Below are positions 1,229 through 44,450 of a stretch of 44,496 nt of DNA, in pieces (position 1 is the first letter of the stretch; the number at the start of each line of letters is the position of its first letter). Source of the stretch: Bdellovibrionales bacterium RIFOXYD12_FULL_39_22 (GTDB lineage Bacteria > Bdellovibrionota > Bacteriovoracia > Bacteriovoracales > Bacteriovoracaceae); the NCBI GenBank assembly GCA_001770205.1, contig MEQL01000020.1, forward strand, positions 1 to 44,496, written 5' to 3'. The position numbers and the translations under genes were made by a program. The notes beneath the pieces were generated by a model, which did no database searches, had not been told where the DNA came from, and saw only the letters and a list, made by a program, of their open reading frames with translations.

Positions 1229-2296
1229 CTAGCGCTTAATCGGACATGACTCCAGCTTCAAATAAAGTGTAATCCGATCAACACTGGCCCAAGAAGAACT
1301 TTCCTCATCCAAAACGCCAAGCATAAAAGAAGTATTTATTCGCAAAATATCTTGCGCACCACATTTGGAAACTAACACTTCGTTGCGACGAAGAAGCGAA
1401 CGCCCTTGTAAACCATCGTTGGTAGCAACCACTCTTTTAGACATTGTTGGTGCATGAGCACCGGCGGTAAAAGCTTCTAGTTTCAAATTAGAAAACTCTC
1501 CCTCTGTGGCCAAATCAAATTTTTGTCCAATATCAATTTGAGAAATAACCAAGCGTGTATTGGCAGGAACTTTGATTGGAATGGCAAGAGAGCAACTCTT
1601 GCGCAAAATAGTAGAAGAACCACTAATACCATTTTTTAACATGTAGTTTTTTGGATAAATATCCAAAATATTTCTCTCATAATCAAAGTCCGCAAATATG
1701 GCGGCGCTGCCGGCATGTCCCTGCGGACAACCAGTGCCATTTATAGCAATCTCCTCACTATTAATTACCGAGGCTAGCAATTCATCATCAATCAGTAAAA
1801 ATTTATCTCCGATATGTGTTACAATTTTAAATCCAACCTGCAATGGATTTAAGTATTGCGAGATAACATAATTATCATCATTGATCGCCGCGGCCCTAAG
1901 CATTTCATGAAAAACCAAATAGTATATATCTCGATCTTTCTCAAAATGTTCAAACCAACGATCTCGATCCAGTATGATTTTACCTGGAGCACCAATCGCA
2001 TCCACCAGCGCCCCTCCATTGTCCCATATCGGGCCGCTTTCAGTGGTAATAACATCTATGGACAGCGTCTGGCGCAAACCTTCCAGATCTAGTTTATGAT
2101 CAATTAAAAGTTGCAGGCCTTGCTCAGAAGCAACAAGATAATTTAATACTACCTCTCCGGCCTTAATAAAAGTTGCGCGCACATGGTCACCACCATTGCC
2201 TTCCCCATGGCCACGAAAGGCCAAGAGATTGGTGCTAACAAAGAGCAGCAGTGACACTAACATAAGCGTTTTGGTAAATTTTTTTCTCTCTTTCAT
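1229..2296 (-). CDS. Secreted protein with an N-terminal GNGGD/HE-motif domain and a C-terminal DUF4360-like domain
   Basis: Start reassigned to ATG 2296 (GAGGAG RBS; signal peptide MKERKKFTKTLMLVSLLLFVSTNLLA). Motifs GHGEGNGGD, LVFHEMLR and INGTGCPQG...RKSCSLAIPIKVP. Confidence 0.7.
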   Translation of the reverse strand: MKERKKFTKTLMLVSLLLFVSTNLLAFRGHGEGNGGDHVRATFIKAGEVVLNYLVASEQGLQLLIDHKLDLEGLRQTLSIDVITTESGPIWDNGGALVDAIGAPGKIILDRDRWFEHFEKDRDIYYLVFHEMLRAAAINDDNYVISQYLNPLQVGFKIVTHIGDKFLLIDDELLASVINSEEIAINGTGCPQGHAGSAAIFADFDYERNILDIYPKNYMLKNGISGSSTILRKSCSLAIPIKVPANTRLVISQIDIGQKFDLATEGEFSNLKLEAFTAGAHAPTMSKRVVATNDGLQGRSLLRRNEVLVSKCGAQDILRINTSFMLGVLDEESSSWASVDRITLYLKLESCPIKR

Positions 2297-2313
2297 AATT
2301 TTCTCCTCTTCTG

Positions 2314-3138
2314 TTATTGCTCCCCGTCCTTGGTTTGCGTCAATGGAAATAGATTGATGCAAATTTTGTACACTTCATTCTTACAATCATCCTCTAAAAA
2401 ATCTGACAATTTCTGTCTAAACTCTCTAATCATTTTTTTTGCTTTTGGCAGCTTTTTGATATCAATGGCCATGGTCATTGAAACAAAATCACGTTTCTCC
2501 ACGCTATCTTTTTCTAGCGATCGCTGGGCCAGTTCTAAATTACGCAAGTGTGCTTTTTTCAAGGCGATATCTGCAATATCATCGGTAGTATTGTAACTTG
2601 CGCCAGTTGGTTTTAATTTACCATTTTTACTTTTGCTTAACATATTTAAGCGAATTAAACGCGCAATTGCCATTTTGACTTCATCAACTCCAATGTTTAA
2701 TCTGCGCGCAATTGCCACTTCATCGCTATCAAAATCATCTGTTTCTGACAGCGATAAAATGGCAAAGTGATACCAATCTGAAATTGTGTGGAACTGATCC
2801 ATGGCCAATTCGATACTAGGCTTAGTTGATTTTTTTTCTCTATTCTGTATCGTGCCATCTTCGCTACTTTTATCTAACTTCTCATTAACATAAAGATCTA
2901 AAATCTGGCCGATCTCTGCGGGCGAAAGACAGAGATTCCGCAAAACCTTTTCCATTCCTTTTTTTGATACACGACGTTTACCGTTTAATATTTCCGATAG
3001 TGCCGCAGGGCCAATTCCTGCGCGCCTGGCAAATGCTCGCAATGAATAGGCCCCATTTTTCATCTTCGCGGCCAGAAGTAGCTCTTGTAATTTTTTCTGA
3101 AAAGCTAGTTGTGCCGACATTTTTTCTTCCTTTCCCAT
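2314..3138 (-). CDS. TIGR02147/DUF4423-family protein with an N-terminal Xre-type HTH
   Basis: YSLRAFARRAGIGPAALSEILNGKR HTH, WYHFAILSL, RDFVSMTMAID and C-terminal EVYKICINLFPLT are typical of this family. Confidence 0.85.
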   Translation of the reverse strand: MGKEEKMSAQLAFQKKLQELLLAAKMKNGAYSLRAFARRAGIGPAALSEILNGKRRVSKKGMEKVLRNLCLSPAEIGQILDLYVNEKLDKSSEDGTIQNREKKSTKPSIELAMDQFHTISDWYHFAILSLSETDDFDSDEVAIARRLNIGVDEVKMAIARLIRLNMLSKSKNGKLKPTGASYNTTDDIADIALKKAHLRNLELAQRSLEKDSVEKRDFVSMTMAIDIKKLPKAKKMIREFRQKLSDFLEDDCKNEVYKICINLFPLTQTKDGEQ

Positions 3139-3141
3139 TAA

Positions 3142-3762
3142 CTACTTTATTTCAAAAATACCGTTATTGGGGCCACATGACTTCACTACTGCGCTAATTA
3201 CAATTTCTGGCCCAATCTCCACCCAGGCCCACGATCTACGAGAGGAAGGAGATGAGTTTCGAAGTAAAATACTAGTATTAAGACGAAGATTTACATCTTC
3301 CCCGCAACCACTCCAAATAATTTCCTCATTCCCGATGGAACCAAAAATGTGGCCCGTTGGCAGATCAATGCTCACCGGATTTCCCACTCCCCCGGCCAGA
3401 AAGTATTCAAATCCAATACGCCCTCGTACGTTGGAAGAAAGGTAGCTACTGAAATCTAACGTCTGCACCACAATCCCAACCTGCATACCGGCCGGCACGG
3501 AAACAGGAATGGCCATATTACAAGTAACGCGTTTGATTGTTTTTCCCTTCGTTATACTAACATAACCATCAAACTCAATGTTGAGTGCATTTAGTTCATA
3601 ATCAAATGAGTACGAAACCGTCTCATCAGCACAGCCACTTCCTCCCACTTCCGGATGGCCGAATGATAAAAATCCTGCGGCGGATGCTGCGGTGGCCACC
3701 CAAGTAGTGGCCAATACCACTGTTAATCCTTTCTTTAAGCTTTTGAAAATCTCTTTTTTCAT
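3142..3762 (-). CDS. DUF4360-like secreted protein
   Basis: Signal peptide ending AASA; GGSGC, RVTCNMAIPVSVPAG and WSGCGEDVNLRLNTSI. GGAG RBS. Confidence 0.75.
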   Translation of the reverse strand: MKKEIFKSLKKGLTVVLATTWVATAASAAGFLSFGHPEVGGSGCADETVSYSFDYELNALNIEFDGYVSITKGKTIKRVTCNMAIPVSVPAGMQVGIVVQTLDFSSYLSSNVRGRIGFEYFLAGGVGNPVSIDLPTGHIFGSIGNEEIIWSGCGEDVNLRLNTSILLRNSSPSSRRSWAWVEIGPEIVISAVVKSCGPNNGIFEIK

Positions 3763-5401: not shown

Positions 5402-6034
5402 TCATCTTATTTTCTGTGCTATAATTTTTGCCTTGATTTGCTCTAAAATTAAATTCTCAGAATCTTCGGGGCAAATTTTAAATGGATCTCCCCAGGAAAT
5501 ATATCCACAAAAAGGCACCAAAATAGAGTCTCCTCGCGGCAGTGAGGCACCAGTATTTTCTAAATATACCGGCACACAAGAAATTTCTGGCATGGCCTTA
5601 AGTAAAATTGCTACTCCTTTTTTTAGTTGTTGCCACTCCCCAGGATTACCTCGAGAGCCCTCAGGAAAAATCACTAAACTTTTTCCGGCCCTTAATAAAG
5701 TAAGCATTGCCTCAATAGGATCCGTGCCATTTTCTTTTTCTTGTTTGTTGCGATTGATTAAAACAACGTTTAAAAGATGATGCGAAAGAAAACGCGACAG
5801 AGAGCTTTTGCCCCAATAGTCCATTGCCGCCACCGGATGAGTGGTAAATATTTTAGAAGCTGGCAGAGAACTCATTATGGCCATGGCATCTATATGACTA
5901 TTGTGATTGGCCACAATTATAAATTGTTTTTCCTTGCAAATTTTTTCATTTTTATAAACATCTATGCCTACAATAAATTTTAAAATCGGGCGCATGACCA
6001 AATAATAGTAGATAAAAATTATAATTTTACTCAT
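5402..6034 (-). CDS. Lysophospholipid acyltransferase (PlsC family)
   Basis: ANHNSHID (HX4D) and FPEGSRG motifs. The start is uncertain; ATG 6034 was chosen. Confidence 0.88.
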   Translation of the reverse strand: MSKIIIFIYYYLVMRPILKFIVGIDVYKNEKICKEKQFIIVANHNSHIDAMAIMSSLPASKIFTTHPVAAMDYWGKSSLSRFLSHHLLNVVLINRNKQEKENGTDPIEAMLTLLRAGKSLVIFPEGSRGNPGEWQQLKKGVAILLKAMPEISCVPVYLENTGASLPRGDSILVPFCGYISWGDPFKICPEDSENLILEQIKAKIIAQKIR

Positions 6035-6170
6035 AACAACAAAGCAATTCTCTCGGACAATAAACCGTTTTTCCTCCCTTGTTACCAATTAAATTCGTGC
6101 TACGATGTGACTATAACTAAGAGAGTCTGCAATATATTGGCATTATACATCAACCTAGGAAAAAGTATTT

Positions 6171-7928
6171 ATGAAAAATTATGAGATCATAGAAGGAAAT
6201 TTTATCTCTTTTGATAAAACAGAATTATTCTATCGAACTTGGAAACCGAAAAATAGTAACGAGGGTGATATTCCCGGGCGCGTGTTAATTCTTTTGCACC
6301 GAGGCCATGAGCATTCTGGACGGCTGCAAGATTTGGTCGAGGGGATTGCTTCCGATGACATGTGGTGTTTTGCCTATGATGGGAGAGGCCATGGAAAAAA
6401 CCCTGGCCCACGCGGATACGCCCCGGATTTTGGATTTATGATTAAAGATCTTAATTCGTTTGTTCAGTTTCTTATCGAAAAACACAATATCAAAATGGAA
6501 AACATCACTATTGTCGCTAACAGTGTTGGCGCAGTAATAACTTCCACCTGGGTGCATGATTATGCTCCTAAAATCAGGGCGATGATATTAGCAGCACCGG
6601 CCTTTTACATTAAACTGTATGTGCCCTTTGCTCTCTTTTTCCTCCGTATACTGAACGCTTTTAAGCATCCGGCCTTTATCTCTAGCTATGTTAAATCAAA
6701 ATTCCTAACTCATGATCCAGCAGAACAGAAAAAATATGATAGCGATCCTCTCATCACTCCTCAAATTGCCGTAAATATCCTACTCGGACTCTACGATCAT
6801 GCTAATCGCACTGTAATCGATGCTGCGGCAATTCACGTACCGACACTAATTCTATCAGCGGGCTCTGATTGGGTAGTGGGGGTAAAACAGCAAAAACAAT
6901 TCTTTGATCAACTATCCTCTACTACTAAAGAATTTGTAGAATATCCCACTTTTTATCACGGAGTTTTGTACGAAAAAGAAAAAAACCTACCCTTCCAAAA
7001 ATCGCGAGAATTTATAGAACGAGTTTATTCTCAGGAATTATTTTCCTATAATCTTATCAATGCCGATCAACAAGGATACACCAAGCAGGAATATGAAAAT
7101 CTTTTGCGCAAATCACTCCCCCTTTGGAAGGCCTTTTACTATGCGTTCACTCGCTTGATGATGGCCACCTTTGGACGTTTAAGTCAGGGTATCCGAATTG
7201 GACTAAATCATGGCTTTGACTCTGGCCTTTCTCTAGACTATGTTTATGAAAATAATCCAAGAGGTATCACGGGAATTGGCCGCTTTATCGATCGCTGTTA
7301 TCTTGATGCTGTCGGTTGGAAAGGCATTCGTGCCAGAAAAATTAATTTGCAAAAAAACATTGAAGAAACCATAAATCGATTATTGAAAGAACATCGTCCA
7401 GTCCGCGTTATGGATATTGCCGCCGGCCCCGGCCGCTACCTTCTAGAAGTGGCGCAGAAATATAATCGGGATGATGTTAAGTTTTTGATTCGCGATTACG
7501 ATCCGCGTAATATTGAAAAAAGCAGATTGCTGGCACGAGAACTTAATTGCAAAAATGTAGAATTCATTCAAGGTGATGCTTTCGATCCCAAGTCATTTGA
7601 TGCCAATAATTTTGCGCCCAACGTTATTGTCATCTCCGGCCTATATGAGTTATTTGATGATAATAAAATGGTGGCCAATTCTATTATGGGGGCCACCTCT
7701 GTTTTGCAAAAACCAGGATATGTGATTTACACCGGACAGCCTTGGCACCCTCAACTCGAATTAATTGCTCATACACTACCCAATCGCGATGGCAACCGCT
7801 GGGTTATGCGTCGAAGAACTCAAGCGGAACTAGATCAGCTATTTTACGGTAGCGGCCTGGTTAAGCAGGATATGAGTATCGATGAGTGGGGGATTTTCAC
7901 TGTATCCAGAGCACAAAATCAGCAGTAA
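6171..7928 (+). CDS. ynbC: YnbC-like bifunctional alpha/beta hydrolase and class I SAM methyltransferase
   Basis: HRGHEHSGR, ANSVGA nucleophile elbow, GFDSGLSLDYVY, DIAAGPGRY, YTGQPWHPQLE and WVMRRRTQAELD. Confidence 0.9.
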   Translation: MKNYEIIEGNFISFDKTELFYRTWKPKNSNEGDIPGRVLILLHRGHEHSGRLQDLVEGIASDDMWCFAYDGRGHGKNPGPRGYAPDFGFMIKDLNSFVQFLIEKHNIKMENITIVANSVGAVITSTWVHDYAPKIRAMILAAPAFYIKLYVPFALFFLRILNAFKHPAFISSYVKSKFLTHDPAEQKKYDSDPLITPQIAVNILLGLYDHANRTVIDAAAIHVPTLILSAGSDWVVGVKQQKQFFDQLSSTTKEFVEYPTFYHGVLYEKEKNLPFQKSREFIERVYSQELFSYNLINADQQGYTKQEYENLLRKSLPLWKAFYYAFTRLMMATFGRLSQGIRIGLNHGFDSGLSLDYVYENNPRGITGIGRFIDRCYLDAVGWKGIRARKINLQKNIEETINRLLKEHRPVRVMDIAAGPGRYLLEVAQKYNRDDVKFLIRDYDPRNIEKSRLLARELNCKNVEFIQGDAFDPKSFDANNFAPNVIVISGLYELFDDNKMVANSIMGATSVLQKPGYVIYTGQPWHPQLELIAHTLPNRDGNRWVMRRRTQAELDQLFYGSGLVKQDMSIDEWGIFTVSRAQNQQ

Positions 7929-7970: not shown

Positions 7971-8951
7971 ATGGATCAAGAGGAGAAGCTAAAGGCACTG
8001 GAAGTCTATTTTAATTTAATGTCCTTTAATGGCGGCGCTTATATCTTTCAGATCGCTAGCAAAATGAATATTTTTTTACAGTTTAAAAATCAATCATTAT
8101 CAGTTACTGAAATGGCCACAGCACTTTCCATGCAAGAACGGCCGCTTTCCGCCCTACTGGAATGCTTAGTGGCCATGGGCCTTCTGCAAAGACAGGACGG
8201 TAAATACTATCCTTCGCCTACCTTACAATTTTTGCACGGTAATTATCAAAATTTAAGTTCTGACTACTGGGAACATTTGCCCACGCTACTTAAAACCGGT
8301 ATCCCATATAAAAAAATGGATGCTGTAGAAAATAGCGAAAGTGAGTATAAAACACAGGTAAAATCTCTGGAGTGGATGATGCGTCCTTCTGCGATGCTGG
8401 CCGCCCAAATGTTAGGTATTGGGAAATCGATCAACGGAGCAAAAATTTTGGATGTCGGGGCCGGATCAGCTGTTTGGAGTCTGGCCATGTTGCAACAAGA
8501 CTCAACAGCATCTGCTACCGCACTAGATTGGCCGGCAGTTTTAGAAGTAGCTAACGAGTCAGCAAAAATACAAAATCTAAGCGGCCGCTTTAAAACCATT
8601 GCTGGCAACTATCATCAAGTAGAAATTAAAGAACAATATGATTTAATTATTCTTGGCAATGTAACCCATCTAGAAAGCGATGTGGGCAATATTAATCTTC
8701 TCTCTCGTCTAAAAAACTATCTCAACCCGCAAGGCCGTTTGATAATTTTTGATGTTTTTAGAGGCCAAAAGCAAGGTGATTTATCGGCGGCCTTATATGA
8801 AATGGGGTTGGTGATTAGAACGACTCAAGGCAAAGTATATGGCAAAGAGGAATTAAGTCACTTTTTACATCAGAGTGGATATTCAAAAACTAATTTTATG
8901 CCTATAGAAATTACCCCGTACACCATGGGAATGTTGATAGCAGAGGTTTAG
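7971..8951 (+). CDS. SAM-dependent O-methyltransferase (class I, with winged-helix dimerisation domain)
   Basis: N-terminal wHTH-like segment, ILDVGAGSA, LDWPAV and AGNYH. Confidence 0.85.
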   Translation: MDQEEKLKALEVYFNLMSFNGGAYIFQIASKMNIFLQFKNQSLSVTEMATALSMQERPLSALLECLVAMGLLQRQDGKYYPSPTLQFLHGNYQNLSSDYWEHLPTLLKTGIPYKKMDAVENSESEYKTQVKSLEWMMRPSAMLAAQMLGIGKSINGAKILDVGAGSAVWSLAMLQQDSTASATALDWPAVLEVANESAKIQNLSGRFKTIAGNYHQVEIKEQYDLIILGNVTHLESDVGNINLLSRLKNYLNPQGRLIIFDVFRGQKQGDLSAALYEMGLVIRTTQGKVYGKEELSHFLHQSGYSKTNFMPIEITPYTMGMLIAEV

Positions 8952-26559: not shown

Positions 26560-26997
26560 CTACAGATCCAGCTTGGTGTAGGCCTCATCAATAAAACTAT
26601 CTATGCAACCAGAAATTGCCTCATACACCTTATCAGTATAGGTTAGATATTGTGAGCCCCCGATATTTTCTAATTTAATTAAATCATTTTTGGAAAAAAA
26701 GCCGTTTAGAACACAACGCTTCGGTAGCTTAGTAACTTTGCCCTCTACGCTACTTCCATCATAAACTCTCCACAAATAGGCAAAGTCGAAGTAGCAAATC
26801 CCTTCGCTTCTCACGCAATTTATAGAATAAAATTCATAATCAAAATCCCCTTCACACCAAGTATCCCCACAGATATTATCAATCTCTTGCAGCAGCTGGC
26901 CCTTTTCCGCGCTGGCCAAAATATCACGATAATCACTAGCGTAAACAATGCTAGAAAAGAAAATTATGCAAACTAGTGCCAAGAATAATCTGGCCAT
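26560..26997 (-). CDS. Secreted hypothetical protein, Cys-containing
   Basis: GGAGG RBS, signal peptide ending VYA, IDNICGDTWCEGDF motif and 6 Cys in the predicted mature part. Confidence 0.8.
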   Translation of the reverse strand: MARLFLALVCIIFFSSIVYASDYRDILASAEKGQLLQEIDNICGDTWCEGDFDYEFYSINCVRSEGICYFDFAYLWRVYDGSSVEGKVTKLPKRCVLNGFFSKNDLIKLENIGGSQYLTYTDKVYEAISGCIDSFIDEAYTKLDL

Positions 26998-27097: not shown

Positions 27098-28702
27098 CTA
27101 TTTTCGCCCAATACTCGTATAAATCGGTGGTGCCGACATTGCAAAATAATCATCAATGCCAATCCCCATCATCTTAAAAATCATCGAGTAAAGTGCGCTA
27201 TTTTTCATTTTCTCAAAAATTAATTCCTCGGTTTTTTTATAGGCCAATCCCACATTATGATTTCCGGCCATACGATATTGTGTGATAAAAAAATCCAGAT
27301 AGAAAAAATTTCTATTCCACCCTTCATAGGCCAAAACATCTTGGGCCCCTAACTTATGCCAATCACCGGCCAAAGATTCACTAAAACAGCCCTGCATGTA
27401 TACAAAACGAAGCTGAGTGGCCACTCCTGAAAGTTTAGCGATATCTTTGTATGAGATAAACTCTTCTCCTGCTGACGCTTTAATATGATTTGGAATCCCA
27501 TGCGTTAACAAATAAAGGTCGTATGGTTTGCCCAGTCTCTCGGCCTGTACAATTGCTTCTTTCAAGCTATCTCGATTAAAATTATCAAAGGTGATATAAA
27601 TTACTTTGTCATATACAGTCTTTATCTTCTTGGAAAGCTGCCACCAGGCGATATCCTCGGCCCGCGGCCCGGCCTCCTGCCCGTTTTTTTTATAGAGCTT
27701 ATTTATCTGTGGCTGAAACTGAGGGGCGACGCTATCATCAATGGCCACAAAAATAAGATTTCTATTGGGATTTGTATCAACCAACTCTCCTTCATCAACA
27801 ATAAGTTTATTATTCATATCATATAAAAAAATTCCCTCTTCTGAGAGAATTTTAAACTTTGAAACATAACGATAATCAGGAGGCGAAGGCAGACAACCGA
27901 CCAGCAACAGCAAAGAAAATAAGGCCAATACTCCTTTTACATTCTTTTTTATATAGCTTCGCCCAAGGGCCCCTGCGCTAAATAAAAAAATGCCCAAAGA
28001 AATAAGCTGACTAGTTGACATCGACATAAAAATATCCTCCCCGCGAAAAGTATCACCTCTGTAAAATTCTGTTATAAAACGTCCAACGGGATACAGCAGT
28101 CCCCATATAAAAATAAGCTGTCCGGCCAATTTTTTTCGCAACATTAGAAGAATAAAAAATAACAAAAATCCCAAGAATGAATCATAAAGCTGAACTGGAT
28201 GAACCGGAATGCCTAGGGCCGGCATAACAGAGCGCGGATCAAAGTAACGAACTGCCCAAGGTAGTCCACTAATTTTTCCCCAACAACAACCATTAGCAAA
28301 GCATCCTATCCGCATTAATCCGTAGGAATAACTCAGTGCCAGCGCCGAACTATCCCAGATGGCCAAACGAACGCTGCTATCTTTAATAAAAAATTTATTA
28401 AAGAACAAAACAAAGAGCGCACCAGCGGCCAGAGAACCATAGAATGTCATCCCATCAAAGCGAGTTAACTCTGCAACTCCGACACTCTCTTGGCCTGCCT
28501 CAAAAAAAAGATAAAAAAATCTAGCACCATAATGTGCCACCCAAGAGGCACCAACTACTAGCACTAAAATTTTATATAGCGGAATCTCTTTATGAAAACG
28601 ACGAATAAAATATAACAAGGTGATCAAAAATGCTAACAATGCCAGCTGGGTTGCGGTGTGCACTTCAAAAAAAGTGTTAGGAAGAGTTATATATGGAAGC
28701 AC
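27098..28702 (-). CDS. Lgt-family diacylglyceryl transferase fused to a lipobox and a putative clan CD (caspase/CHAT-like) peptidase domain
   Basis: Lgt motifs GMTFYG, RIGCFANGCCWG, HPVQLY and RFITEFYRGD. These are followed by KKNVKGVLALFSLLLLVGC, then LYLLTHG and FVYMQGC. GTG start with AGGAG RBS. Confidence 0.8.
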   Translation of the reverse strand: MLPYITLPNTFFEVHTATQLALLAFLITLLYFIRRFHKEIPLYKILVLVVGASWVAHYGARFFYLFFEAGQESVGVAELTRFDGMTFYGSLAAGALFVLFFNKFFIKDSSVRLAIWDSSALALSYSYGLMRIGCFANGCCWGKISGLPWAVRYFDPRSVMPALGIPVHPVQLYDSFLGFLLFFILLMLRKKLAGQLIFIWGLLYPVGRFITEFYRGDTFRGEDIFMSMSTSQLISLGIFLFSAGALGRSYIKKNVKGVLALFSLLLLVGCLPSPPDYRYVSKFKILSEEGIFLYDMNNKLIVDEGELVDTNPNRNLIFVAIDDSVAPQFQPQINKLYKKNGQEAGPRAEDIAWWQLSKKIKTVYDKVIYITFDNFNRDSLKEAIVQAERLGKPYDLYLLTHGIPNHIKASAGEEFISYKDIAKLSGVATQLRFVYMQGCFSESLAGDWHKLGAQDVLAYEGWNRNFFYLDFFITQYRMAGNHNVGLAYKKTEELIFEKMKNSALYSMIFKMMGIGIDDYFAMSAPPIYTSIGRK

Positions 28703-28801
28703 TAAACACTCCTGAAAAAATTTATCTAACTCCTCAATATATCACCAAATGACGCCGCGCAAAAGTATTTTGCTAGCGGCTTGTAATATTTATCTGGGGA
28801 C

Positions 28802-28832
28802 AAAAAAGGCCCACTAGAAGCGGGCCTTTTTT
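28802..28832. terminator. Intrinsic terminator (symmetrical) downstream of the 28858..29406 gene
   Basis: AAAAAAGGCCC-ACTAGAAGC-GGGCCTTTTTT. Confidence 0.8.
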
Positions 28833-28857: not shown

Positions 28858-29406
28858 TTATCTTAAGGAACCACGAAGCTCGCTAGATAATTTTTCTACT
28901 ACCTTCAAAGATAAATCTGGATTAATTTGCGCATTTTTCTGCAAATTATCTGCATACTTTCGCATATCTTCATCACGCGCTCCAATAAAGCTGGCCATAT
29001 CTTCAGTTGTTTTTACATCAACTAGCGCAAAATATTCGTTCATTTTCTTTTCAACACTGCGCTCGTTGATAATACTAGCAACTTTATCATTAAATTCTTT
29101 CTGCTCGGCAAATTCTGGAGAAGTTATCAGAGTGCCAAGCAAGCGATCGGTGGCCGCTACGTTTCCATTAACTACTTCTGGAGCACAAGAAGATCCAATG
29201 GCCGCTCCAATAATCCCACCAGCTATCGCCCCAATTATAATGTCGCCATCGTGACCGTGATGATGACTAACAGTTACAGTACGACATTGGCGCTCATATC
29301 CATAATAGGTTTGACGAGTATGGCAACGATACTCTGTCATGTGGTGGGCCATGGCAGTAGAAGTAAGCATTAAAGCACCTAGTGCAAGTGATAGGCCTTT
29401 TTTCAT
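28858..29406 (-). CDS. Secreted hypothetical protein with a His-rich N-terminus and a glycine-zipper-like segment
   Basis: Start at ATG 29406 (AAGGAG RBS); signal peptide MKKGLSLALGALMLTSTAMA; SHHHGH; IIIGAIAGGIIGAAIG. Confidence 0.8.
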   Translation of the reverse strand: MKKGLSLALGALMLTSTAMAHHMTEYRCHTRQTYYGYERQCRTVTVSHHHGHDGDIIIGAIAGGIIGAAIGSSCAPEVVNGNVAATDRLLGTLITSPEFAEQKEFNDKVASIINERSVEKKMNEYFALVDVKTTEDMASFIGARDEDMRKYADNLQKNAQINPDLSLKVVEKLSSELRGSLR

Positions 29407-29456
29407 AAATTTTCTCCTTTTGTTGGTTAGCAAGTTTTCGCGAACGCAGCGACTAT

Positions 29457-42681: not shown

Positions 42682-42756
42682 GCGGGCGTAGTTCAGTGGG
42701 AGAACGCTTCGTTGACATCGAAGAGGCCGCTGGTTCAATCCCAGCCGTCCGTACCA
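42682..42756 (+). tRNA. tRNA-Val (GAC)
   Basis: GCGGGCGTAGTTCAGTGGGAGAACGCTTCGTTGACATCGAAGAGGCCGCTGGTTCAATCCCAGCCGTCCGTACCA; anticodon stem CTTCG/CGAAG, with CCA encoded. Confidence 0.95.
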
Positions 42757-44450
42757 GGCCATACGATAGACGAACCACCGGACAGACCAATGACGGCCGG
42801 TTCGACAAACGGAAATAGAAAGCCACCGGGAGAAGACCCCGGTGGCTTTTTTGTTTTAGGCTCAAATCCCAGCTCTTTTGAATTCTCGGCCAATGAATAG
42901 TGAACCTGTAGACCACGCACCGTTAGCCAAAGTTGACTAAAAATCTGACGAAGCAGCCCTTTTTTCAAGACCGGCGTAGCCTTTTTCCATCCTCGCTTAA
43001 ACTCCAAAACCCTTTCCTCAATTACCTTTCTTGCTACTTTGGTGTCCACGAAAGTGTGACCATTCTGACTCAATTCTTCCAAATTCCGTTCCAATTCCAT
43101 CTTTTTTGTTGCCAGTGTTTGCAATCTCTCTTTCACCAAATTGCCCCCAGCACATCCGTCTTCGAAGCTAGCTGAGAGTTTGAAGACTGAATCAATCTCT
43201 GAAGCAATTTTTGAAATTGCTTTTTCCAATTGTTCAATTTTTGTCTTAAAAAACAATCTACTGGTACCAACGGATTTTTTTATATTATCTTCAACATTAT
43301 CCATGTAACCAGCACCCAATATAACTTGATCCAAATGTTTTACAATCGCCTCCTCAATTTCATCAGCAGAAAAGCGTTTTATTGGACATTCAATTTTTTC
43401 ACCCGCCGTGAACTTGTGCCCGTAGTAGCGATGAACTTGGTTTCTCCCGTGCGCTGATTGACCAAACAAAGCACGATTACAATGACCACAACGTAGAAAT
43501 CCTGAAACGAAAAAAATTCTTTTTTCTGCATTATCAAATCTTCGCCACTCCAACTTCCGTGCTTGTTCAATTAACTTTTGTACCTGATCAAAAATCTCCT
43601 TATCAACAATAGCTGGCCAAGATGCTTTTACAATTTGATATTGCTGCCACGCCTTCAAAGTACCTGGGTCTTCGTCCTTATTGCCTTTATTTACTTCTCT
43701 CATCCCAGCATATGCATAATTTTGGAGCAAACACTGCACAGATGGCACTGTCCAACGACCATCAGCAACATGACGAGTGTTTGGTCTACCGTTAGCCTTT
43801 CGTATCATTTTTTCATCAGTCAATCGCTTTGCCGTTTTGGATAAACTTCCTTCCTCCAAGTACAAAGAAAAAATATATCTAATCAATTTTGCCTCATCTT
43901 CGTTGATAATAAGACGGCCAGGATTAGAAGGGTCCCTATCAAGTCCAAGGATTGGATTCCCACCGTTTGCCAACCCTCTTAATGATCTTGAGTGGAAATT
44001 CATCGAGACCCTTTCTGACGTTTGCTTACGCTCAAATTGTGCCAAATTTATCATATTAAAGATCATCATTTCACCGGCCGGAGTACTGGTATCGAACTGT
44101 TCTTTGACCGAAAGAAATTTTGCTTTGTACTTCTCTAGCTCTTTTAAAAGGATACAAAAGTCAGAGATACTGCGCGAAAGCCTCGAAAGATCGGTAATTA
44201 ATATTAAGCTAATTTTGCCATTGCGAAGATCTTTCAACATCCGCTGATATGCGGGGCGATTGGTGTTCTTTGCAGAATAGCCGTCATCAATATAAGTTTC
44301 GACAACCTTTCCCCAATTTTTCTCTTGTAGATTTTTTACCTCGACAAAGGAGCGCAATCGATGTTGCTGACTTTCAAGCGATCCTTCTGCAATCTGTGCC
44401 TGCTCCTCAGTACTTACTCTGTTGTTATGTGAAATTTCACATAACGGACG
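42735..44450 (-). CDS. Large serine recombinase (resolvase, recombinase, Zn-ribbon, coiled coil); 5' end disrupted, possibly a pseudogene
   Basis: RVSTEEQ (Ser codon 44414-44412), YIDDGYSAKNTNRP, DLSRLSRS, AQFERKQTSER and LRCGHC. The frame is open back to a TAA at 44453-44451, with no ATG/GTG/TTG before the Ser. The stop codon lies inside tRNA-Val. Confidence 0.88.
   Translation of the reverse strand, partial: RPLCEISHNNRVSTEEQAQIAEGSLESQQHRLRSFVEVKNLQEKNWGKVVETYIDDGYSAKNTNRPAYQRMLKDLRNGKISLILITDLSRLSRSISDFCILLKELEKYKAKFLSVKEQFDTSTPAGEMMIFNMINLAQFERKQTSERVSMNFHSRSLRGLANGGNPILGLDRDPSNPGRLIINEDEAKLIRYIFSLYLEEGSLSKTAKRLTDEKMIRKANGRPNTRHVADGRWTVPSVQCLLQNYAYAGMREVNKGNKDEDPGTLKAWQQYQIVKASWPAIVDKEIFDQVQKLIEQARKLEWRRFDNAEKRIFFVSGFLRCGHCNRALFGQSAHGRNQVHRYYGHKFTAGEKIECPIKRFSADEIEEAIVKHLDQVILGAGYMDNVEDNIKKSVGTSRLFFKTKIEQLEKAISKIASEIDSVFKLSASFEDGCAGGNLVKERLQTLATKKMELERNLEELSQNGHTFVDTKVARKVIEERVLEFKRGWKKATPVLKKGLLRQIFSQLWLTVRGLQVHYSLAENSKELGFEPKTKKPPGSSPGGFLFPFVEPAVIGLSGGSSIVWPGTDGWD
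42819..42857 (+). terminator. Intrinsic terminator for tRNA-Val, embedded in the recombinase frame
   Basis: AAAGCCACCGGG-AGAAGAC-CCCGGTGGCTTT-TTTGTTTT. Confidence 0.85.

Follow-up and report, generated by a model that had tools for sequence, protein, structure and literature searches.

Why should an enzyme that lipidates lipoproteins and a lipoprotein be encoded in a single chain, and what becomes of such a chain? The question is raised by one gene on contig MEQL01000020.1 of Bdellovibrionales bacterium RIFOXYD12_FULL_39_22, of which we analyzed a stretch of 44,496 nucleotides, hereafter called the window. In this gene a Cys-type variant of the diacylglyceryl transferase family Lgt is followed in the same reading frame by a lipoprotein signal and by a soluble domain resembling the clan CD peptidases. 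Lgt is viewed as an enzyme acting in trans on N-terminal signals, and a natural chain carrying both the enzyme and a conserved signal of its substrates allows action in cis to be tested. The fused chain also raises the questions of whether signal peptidase II (LspA) can process a signal that is not N-terminal and of what purpose second lgt copies serve.

The fused gene is best explained as uniting two neighbours which relatives keep separate but translationally coupled. We hold with moderate confidence that a Cys-type Lgt has here been joined to a lipoprotein encoded downstream, that the internal signal would export the peptidase domain, that C270 would be lipidated, and that signal peptidase II would then free a lipid-anchored peptidase together with an Lgt carrying one extra helix.

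Structure of the fused gene

The gene and its main parts are located in the window as follows.

27098..28702, minus strand: whole fused gene, a single uninterrupted open reading frame of 534 codons plus stop codon (27098-27100), with a GTG start
28709..28713, minus strand: Shine-Dalgarno-like AGGAG, six nucleotides upstream of the GTG, as read from the sequence
27971..28669, minus strand: Lgt domain, residues 12-244, with seven hydrophobic segments (Pfam PF01790, profile match to 5AZB, Foldseek)
27893..27961, minus strand: internal lipoprotein signal peptide, R248-C270, which aligns with the N-terminal signals of stand-alone homologues
27101..27892, minus strand: clan CD (caspase/CHAT-like) domain, residues 271-534, predicted to be periplasmic (AlphaFold2, Foldseek); the conserved Pro-rich tether LPSPPD precedes it

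A first-pass annotation of this DNA, made by a model from the sequence letters, had described one uninterrupted reading frame of 534 residues at 27098..28702 on the minus strand, and this is borne out. The GTG start codon occupies 28700-28702, and the N-terminus of the fused protein, V/M-L-P-Y, agrees with the starts of its homologues in the alignment. The Lgt domain contains the motifs GMTFYG (residues 84-89), RIGCFANGCCWG (131-142), HPVQLY (168-173) and RFITEFYR (208-215); the signal (residues 248-270) contains KKNVKG-VLALFSLLLLVGC (252-270), and in the soluble domain YDLYLLTHG (394-402) and LRFVYMQGC (431-439) are found. All motif and codon coordinates of the first-pass annotation were correct, among them those of the C270 codon (27895-27893), H401-G402 (27502-27497), the C439 codon (27388-27386) and an in-frame ATA (27952-27950). 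Its gap of about 37 residues between the His and Cys motifs has to be corrected to a spacing of 38 residues from His401 to Cys439, the motifs themselves being in place.

The fusion is found repeatedly. The protein belongs to an identical-protein cluster of five member sequences, on six contigs, and PF01790 lies upstream of the same C-terminal domain in 35 of the 102 family representatives scanned against Pfam, some of them truncated at a contig end. The same combination of Lgt and C-terminal domain occurred, in diverse sequences, in 25 of 38 long Lgt-family matches.

The membership of the N-terminal half in the Lgt family, proposed in the first-pass annotation from motifs, is confirmed by three kinds of comparison. 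Residues 12-244 match PF01790 with 115.5 bits (cut-off 24.9, E 3.2e-33), a profile built from 30 fused forms matches E. coli Lgt (5AZB) with E 3.8e-20 over chain residues 29-287, and with the full-length AlphaFold2 model as query Foldseek ranked 5azb first (E 6.4e-9, TM-score 0.62 on target length). The cut-offs of the NCBIfam Lgt equivalog models were not reached (NF000778, 95.4 versus 334; TIGR00544, 71.7 versus 118.9), and a phmmer search with the single fused-protein sequence against the PDB sequences gave nothing better than E 0.4.

The central signature of this domain is a variant.

28277..28312, minus strand: variant Lgt signature RIGCFANGCCWG, R131-G142, located by alignment to 5azb

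The first-pass annotation had taken this stretch for an ordinary Lgt motif, which is not the case: it is a Cys variant at the positions of N146 and E151 of the E. coli enzyme, of a type known from distant Lgts. According to the profile alignment Y204, R208, E212, R215, R131 and G142 correspond to Y235, R239, E243, R246, R143 and G154 of E. coli Lgt and are kept, whereas C134, C139 and C140 stand at N146, E151 and L152, and Y88 stands at H103. The E. coli signature G142-R-L-G-N146-F-I-N-G-E151-L-W-G154 is present in part, with R, G, F, N, G, W and G kept. The alignment to 5AZB begins at chain residue 29, with Y26 outside it, and in it the head region between transmembrane helices 4 and 5 (TM4 and TM5) is about 15 residues shorter than in E. 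coli Lgt. C134, C139, C140, G138 and G142, and also R208 and R215, are invariant in all 30 fused forms. The same C..CC signature was found by pattern match in 106 of 118 further Lgt-family matches, including records from Thermodesulfovibrionales and Elusimicrobia; of the remaining 12, two are without the pattern and ten have it elsewhere in the protein. The window protein is further distinguished from E. coli Lgt (5AZB/5AZC), with which it shares family, fold and the seven hydrophobic segments, by its 290-residue C-terminal addition.

It has been reported that E. coli Lgt mutants in R143, H103, Y26 and E151 are inactive (PMC4728403) and that Y26, H103, R143, N146, G154 and R239 are absolutely required, N146A being non-functional (PMC13251419). 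In distant Lgts the N146 position is occupied by C and the E151 position by C or D, and Firmicutes Lgts have Y in place of H103 (PMC13251419). The Lgt of L. interrogans has N146C and, in E. coli without Lpp, restores cell morphology and, poorly, viability; the Leptospira genomes have a single lgt in the table of that survey (PMC13251419). M. smegmatis MSMEG_5408 also has N146C and is presumed to be of low activity (PMC13251419). By their reported description these two proteins resemble the window protein in N146C but are stand-alone (PMC13251419). In view of this partial complementation and of the single lgt of Leptospira, the Cys variant is compatible with a working enzyme.

Directly behind the Lgt domain lies the internal lipoprotein signal, at residues 248-270 of 534 and not at the N-terminus of the precursor. 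Two codons within it are of particular relevance.

27893..27895, minus strand: codon of the lipobox cysteine C270, at which the protein is presumed to be lipidated and the mature lipoprotein to begin
27950..27952, minus strand: in-frame ATA (I251), 19 residues before C270, at the position of the ATG/GTG start of split relatives

The layout of the signal is regular. An n-region R248-G257 with four positive residues (R248, K252, K253, K256) is followed by the h-region V258-V268 and the lipobox L267-V268-G269-C270; the uncharged run before the lipobox cysteine measures 13 residues, and a Pro-rich tether, LPSPPD, follows C270. In its positive n-region, its uncharged run and LVGC it thus resembles the classical signals for Sec and signal peptidase II, and it differs from them in lying behind a seven-helix enzyme.

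For the lipobox statistics 36 stand-alone forms were aligned to window residues 250-534 and set beside 30 fused rows, the window protein included. The strict lipobox pattern [LVI][ASTVI][GAS]C (PMC12462473) is present in 16 of 36 stand-alone and 16 of 30 fused forms. In the C270 column a cysteine is found in 35 of 36 stand-alone forms (P0055 is the exception) and in 28 of 30 fused forms (exceptions P0024 and P0071). Position -1 is G in 16, S in 9 and A in 3 of the 28 Cys-bearing fused forms, and it is G, A or S in every Cys-bearing stand-alone row; L at position -3 was counted in 18 of 35 stand-alone and 19 of 28 fused forms. The stand-alone relatives carry the signal at the N-terminus (35 of 36), with the cysteine aligned with C270 and then the same LPxPP tether. 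A lipobox-like motif at residues 263-298 was present in nine of ten additional fused forms. Behind the lipobox cysteine L, I, V or F predominate, whereas Asp stands there in only 2 of 28 fused and 2 of 35 stand-alone forms. Under the '+2 rule' of E. coli, which does not hold universally, this residue would target the outer membrane as the destination of the peptidase.

We take this conservation as evidence that the internal signal is probably still used by Lgt and signal peptidase II, because a plain membrane anchor needs no small residue before an invariant cysteine. The first-pass annotation had proposed a complete internal lipoprotein signal at this place. Its homology to the N-terminal signals of the stand-alone forms and its retention in fused relatives agree with that proposal, as does the conservation of the lipobox cysteine. 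The ATA had been put forward as a relic start codon: the distance of 19 residues to the cysteine fits the split genes, in which the start codons lie 17-23 residues before the lipobox cysteine, and such a descent is not proven by it.

The hydropathy profile gives seven hydrophobic segments in the Lgt part and one at about residues 253-277, the positive residues lying on every second loop. Seven transmembrane helices are present in E. coli Lgt, whose N-terminus adds a strand to the periplasmic head (PMC4728403). With seven helices and an outside N-terminus TM7 would end in the cytoplasm and C270 would be periplasmic, so that the predicted topology is in line with the periplasmic cysteine on which the first proposal had depended. 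The full-length AlphaFold2 model (predicted local distance difference test score, pLDDT, 88.2; predicted template modelling score, pTM, 0.65) likewise has seven helices before residue 250. The signal helix of this model comprises residues 255-265 only, that is 11 residues, and the lipobox residues 266-269 have a pLDDT below 50. In the model, residues 255-269 look like a short signal-peptide core with a flexible domain join, not like a full membrane span. A complex prediction of residues 1-250 with residues 251-534, each with a 30-row alignment, gave no verdict, its score being 0.00 in a run without controls.

The soluble domain contains the two candidate catalytic motifs.

27497..27502, minus strand: H401-G402, candidate catalytic His, directly after strand 394-399
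27386..27394, minus strand: Q437-G438-C439, candidate catalytic Cys, directly after strand 431-437; aligns with the Cys motif of caspase-7

The first-pass annotation had suggested a caspase/CHAT-like peptidase here and AlphaFold and Foldseek as a means of checking it. The AlphaFold2 model of the soluble domain, calculated from a 37-row alignment, reached a pLDDT of 93.1 and a pTM of 0.89. Foldseek gave 11 matches at E ≤1e-3 in the PDB, the best being the SAVED-CHAT filament 8TL0 (E 1.4e-5). The 42 matches listed were all to clan CD proteins (caspase-1, -3, -6, -7, -8, -11, C11, legumain) or to the anti-sigma factor DdvA (8RW5), which we take to carry a CHAT domain. Probabilities among the top matches (SAVED-CHAT, caspase-7, -11, -3, -1, C11, legumain) were 0.97-1.00; the TM-scores were modest, 0.32-0.45 on query length and up to 0.56 on target length.

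Clan CD is defined by His-Gly and then a small residue followed by Cys, each right after a hydrophobic strand. In the model this order is found, with T-H401-G402 after strand 394-399 and G438-C439 after strand 431-437. All 30 fused forms have H401, G402 and C439 without exception; among the stand-alone forms C439 and G402 are invariant and H401 is kept in at least 90%, P0046 having Tyr. A profile search placed LLTHG and MQxC in register with the His and Cys motifs of caspase-7, with E values of 0.12-1.1, which are not significant alone. The window protein itself gave no match to the Pfam families Peptidase_C14 or CHAT at E up to 1; of the 102 relatives P0026 passes Peptidase_C14 (23.5 versus 21.4), and P0081 lies just below the CHAT cut-off (23.8 versus 24). 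Both the predicted fold and the expected His/Cys dyad were thus recovered, and by these the soluble domain is clan CD-like, not a member of C14 or CHAT. It shares the fold and the strand-HG/QxC arrangement with the named clan CD peptidases (C14, CHAT 8TL0/8RW5, C11 6N9J, legumain C13) and differs from them in having no Pfam C14 or CHAT match and in being a predicted periplasmic lipoprotein. The domain may be an active protease.

Beyond the dyad, Y364, D395, G452 and P526 are invariant in both alignments, and E349 and N465 are kept in at least 90% in both. In one alignment each, W353, Q437 and F466 (stand-alone) and W354, D322 and N405 (fused) reach at least 90%. Possibly these positions shape the substrate pocket.

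Fused and separate genes in relatives

With residues 271-534 as query, a search covering every representative protein returned 103 relatives at E ≤1e-3, of which 87 were found at ≤1e-10 and 46 at ≤1e-30. They fall into two length classes, namely the fused forms and a second class to which most others belong, of 250-320 residues (the stand-alone lipoproteins having about 260-300) and with a classical N-terminal lipoprotein signal. The result is a new family of predicted periplasmic caspase-like lipoproteins which has been largely missed by Pfam, as only 1 of 102 representatives passes C14. Envelope proteases of Bacteriovoracaceae and Bdellovibrionales matter for predation biology.

For the gene arrangement genome contigs were scanned with patterns. 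The wide alignment A2 contained no conserved stretch usable for this search, and a 7-sequence alignment was used instead. It gave 85 pattern matches and six confirmed loci (L001-L006), all from metagenome-assembled genomes of Bacteriovoracaceae or Bdellovibrionales. Four of the six, L001, L002, L004 and L005, contain a split pair in which an lgt-like gene of 273-289 residues, also of the Cys type, ends in ATGA or GTGA; the same four nucleotides hold the start codon of the lipoprotein gene, so that the two genes overlap by 4 nucleotides in different frames. In L006 the genes are fused (501 residues). L003 has the lipoprotein gene with no lgt adjacent to it. Fused and split homologues, the comparison of which had been recommended in the first-pass annotation, thus both exist in Bacteriovoracaceae and Bdellovibrionales. 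The lipoprotein gene of L005 is broken into two open reading frames (5953..6300 and 6328..6804), being either a pseudogene or the result of an assembly error. Position -2 of its lipobox is E (LLFLEAC), where the near-identical P0018 has G.

A quick maximum-likelihood tree was calculated from 70 C-terminal domains, after 20 of 90 sequences had been left out as fragments and the signal-peptide columns had been dropped. After relabelling of two truncated fusions the set consisted of 34 fused and 36 stand-alone forms. Between fused and split, 26 changes of state are counted on this tree, and the well-supported branches force at least five of them; shuffled labels need 23.5 changes on average, so that the fused and split states show no clustering. 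We read this pattern as suggesting that the two states are functionally interchangeable, which would be understandable if cutting of the precursor at the lipobox gave the same two products as the split genes. In the simplest reading the genes become joined or separated through a small insertion or deletion close to their overlap, and both states would work. A 4-nucleotide gene overlap occurring alongside repeated switches between split and fused genes is in itself an evolutionary example of some value. The junction in the window (27935..27955, minus strand) contains a run of six A, ATAAAAAAGAAT, which is prone to slippage and may help explain the switching.

It was also asked whether the organism has a housekeeping lgt besides the fused one. 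No second Lgt was found among the other genes of the 44,496-nucleotide window, and an ESM Atlas search with residues 1-250 returned generic Lgt clusters only, which are not informative on paralogy. In a published table of complete genomes (PMC13251419, supplementary file 2, LGT.allprok.hits.pergenome, column #LGT) two PF01790 genes are counted in all ten genomes of Bacteriovoracales and Bdellovibrionales, these being Bacteriovorax stolpii, Halobacteriovorax marinus SJ and BE01, Halobacteriovorax sp. BALOs_7, five strains of Bdellovibrio bacteriovorus and B. exovorus; a genome of the neighbouring Silvanigrellales has one. Because ten of ten related complete genomes have two, the organism of the window probably carries a second lgt. 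As its equivalog scores are low, the fused gene may be the additional copy.

Fate of the fused chain

The mechanism that we favour, in which the former lipoprotein signal would still be used inside the chain, can be set out in a few steps. The seven Lgt helices would enter the membrane in such a way that the N-terminus lies outside and the C-terminus inside. The former N-terminal signal, R248-C270, would then act as an internal export signal and bring the peptidase domain into the periplasm. The attached Lgt domain, or any Lgt of the cell, would transfer diacylglyceryl to C270, and signal peptidase II would cut between G269 and C270. This would leave a free peptidase anchored by its lipid and an Lgt that retains one extra helix at its C-terminus, the two products which the split genes also give.

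Several points weigh against this mechanism. Lipidation, cleavage and proteolysis are steps that we infer. We know of no case in which signal peptidase II cuts a signal behind seven membrane helices. The Lgt domain has Cys at N146, a position required in E. coli, and at E151, and Tyr at H103. Two of the 30 fused forms (P0024 and P0071) lack the aligned cysteine, so that in some cases at least a tether with no lipobox is tolerated. In one of six loci (L003) no lgt adjoins the lipoprotein gene, and pairing is not obligatory. That the organism probably has a second lgt is judged from its cultured relatives only. With regard to the tree, 8 of 67 inner branches are well supported, and the stand-alone records come without gene context, some of them maybe being products of assembly frameshifts.

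The alternative that fares best is that of obligate self-lipidation, the full form of what the first-pass annotation had proposed, according to which a dedicated Lgt paralogue acts only or mainly in cis (in the split arrangement on its co-translated neighbour) and no other Lgt serves the substrate. The close association of the genes points in this direction, as the lgt-like and lipoprotein genes overlap or are fused in five of the six related loci and in the window, and so do the two PF01790 genes in ten of ten related complete genomes (PMC13251419). The side cleft proposed by Mao et al. as the entry site of the lipobox is lined by TM7 (PMC4728403), and if the chain turned back as a hairpin between TM7 and the signal helix, the lipobox would come to lie near this cleft. 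There is also a precedent in plasmid-borne lgt copies which travel with particular lipoprotein genes, those of type IV secretion (PMC13251419); these are separate genes on plasmids, unlike the 4-nucleotide overlap or chromosomal fusion of the window and its relatives. However, L003 has a lipoprotein with an ordinary lipobox and no adjacent lgt, and the lipobox of the family is canonical, so that any Lgt should accept it. Furthermore the Cys-type subfamily is widespread as stand-alone proteins, the Thermodesulfovibrionales and Elusimicrobia records included, and the full-length model is unconfident around C270. We consider obligate self-lipidation unlikely, if still a serious contender.

Alternatively, the fusion might be permanent, the stretch 258-268 serving as an uncut eighth membrane anchor of a bifunctional inner-membrane protein, with its cysteine maybe lipidated and maybe not. 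The two fused forms out of 30 that lack the cysteine suggest that an uncut tether is viable, and there are other C-terminally extended Lgt-family proteins (P0234, P0245, P0239 and forms of about 600 residues) with no lipobox-like motif after the Lgt domain. The residue at position -1 speaks for cleavage instead, since its restriction to G, S or A in all 28 fused forms with the cysteine, together with a lipobox profile like that of the stand-alone forms, is hard to explain without selection for it. The predicted helix has just 11 residues, and fused and split states swap freely on the tree. A permanent fusion is distinctly unlikely in our opinion.

A dedicated lipidation module would go further than a neutral fusion. 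Here the specialised Cys-type Lgt paralogue would act in cis and lipidate nothing but the substrate tethered to it or co-translated with it, after which signal peptidase II would cut a signal buried behind seven helices; we regard this as improbable. In a bolder version the clan CD domain could be a transpeptidase which, with the Lgt paralogue, anchors other envelope or prey-directed proteins to lipid. The analogy is with the clan CD relatives GPI transamidase and PorU, which cleave a sorting signal and attach a lipid-containing anchor. If this version held, bacteria would have a second way of lipidating proteins.

Very improbable is a loss of diacylglyceryl transferase activity, with the Lgt-like domain acting as a membrane scaffold or in other chemistry and the lipobox served by another Lgt only. 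N146, E151 and H103, all important in E. coli, are replaced, both NCBIfam scores stay below their cut-offs, and MSMEG_5408 with N146C is presumed to be of low activity (PMC13251419). Against a loss stand the L. interrogans enzyme with N146C, from genomes with a single lgt and active to some degree in E. coli without Lpp, and the Y at H103, which is the Firmicutes state (PMC13251419). The domain has retained the equivalents of R143, Y235, R239, E243, R246 and G154, and C134, C139 and C140 are shared by all 30 fused forms, which argues for a selected active-site variant and not for decay.

That two overlapping genes were wrongly merged by a sequencing or assembly frameshift, for which a single-base error near a 4-nucleotide overlap in different frames or in the run of six A would suffice, was considered and is rejected as extremely improbable, given the identical protein on six contigs, the 35 of 102 representatives and 25 of 38 long matches with the same, sequence-diverse fusion, and the fused linkers, which are unlike the split tails in length and sequence.

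As kinds, Lgt, the lipoprotein signal and the clan CD fold are already known. What appears to be undescribed is an Lgt fused to, or overlapping with, the carrier of its own substrate signal, together with the conserved internal lipobox and the family of lipoprotein peptidases. A full-text search, which did not cover subscription journals, found no paper on an Lgt-lipoprotein fusion or on an internal lipobox cut by signal peptidase II. A look-up of terms in PMC11656739 gave nothing on an Lgt-lipoprotein fusion or an internal lipobox, and the words 'fused', 'fusion' and 'paralog' are absent from the main text of the large Lgt survey (PMC13251419). Other fusions of Cys-type Lgt-family proteins do exist in our matches, namely with PDZ (P0234, P0245), with an N-terminal HAD hydrolase (P0235), with a CDGSH iron-sulfur finger (P0239) and in unexplained forms of about 600 residues; a pattern search in these (P0233-P0245) found no lipobox-like motif directly after the Lgt domain. 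Two known proteins come close in one respect each. In Ppm1 of M. tuberculosis an Lnt domain is fused to a mannose synthase, so that an enzyme of the lipoprotein pathway is part of a fusion. In FbcH of Bradyrhizobium, a cytochrome b-c1 polyprotein, a polytopic membrane protein precedes an internal signal peptide at which the chain is cleaved, by signal peptidase I and not II. In neither of the two is an enzyme joined to the signal of its own substrate.

Gene neighbourhood and minor observations

The gene upstream of the fusion, here called gene X, is a conserved neighbour. It and the intergenic hairpin are located as follows.

28858..29433, minus strand: gene X, 191 residues, with a hydrophobic N-terminal segment and no Pfam match
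28802..28826, minus strand: GC hairpin GGCCC...GGGCC with a T-run behind it, in the spacer that separates gene X from the fused gene, as read from the sequence
L001 4573..5127, L002 4554..5114, L003 5367..5909 and L004 276..1070: homologues of gene X

Homologues with 27-47% identity lie directly upstream of the split pair in L001, L002 and L004 and directly upstream of the lone lipoprotein gene in L003. The protein begins with a part rich in Cys and His, has a hydrophobic, Gly-rich stretch that closes with an invariant CAPE motif, and has a tail of helical appearance; in L004 it contains a long insert of Gly/Arg/His/Asp repeats. Gene X could encode a partner or a substrate of the peptidase. 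A scan of the window for promoters and terminators gave counts not above those of shuffled sequence; it allowed loops of 3-8 nucleotides, and the hairpin after gene X, which has a 9-nucleotide loop, is not in its list. Directly downstream of the fusion (26560..26997, minus strand) a Cys-rich protein of 145 residues is encoded, with a hydrophobic N-terminal segment and no Pfam match.

Genes resembling dihydrofolate reductase and thymidylate synthase, as judged by eye, lie near the cluster on the opposite strand in three of the loci (L001 11212..12488, L002 11191..12533, L003 6824..8103), and in L003 they directly adjoin the lipoprotein gene. In E. coli lgt adjoins thyA. The thymidylate synthase-like neighbours may be the remnant of an old lgt neighbourhood.

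The window has a G+C content of 39.7%, and its other genes are ordinary chromosomal ones such as those for PNPase, dUTPase, ribosomal protein L25, BipA and PEPCK. At its edge (42735..44357, minus strand) a large serine recombinase of 540 residues is encoded (Resolvase, Recombinase and Zn_ribbon_recom), which may mark the boundary of an integrated element. At 1229..3762 on the minus strand two DUF4360 proteins flank a regulator with a helix-turn-helix domain and DUF4423, forming a small cluster. Finally, a 585-residue fusion of a Hydrolase_4 alpha/beta hydrolase with Methyltransf_20 is encoded at 6171..7928 on the plus strand and is followed by an O-methyltransferase gene at 7971..8951.

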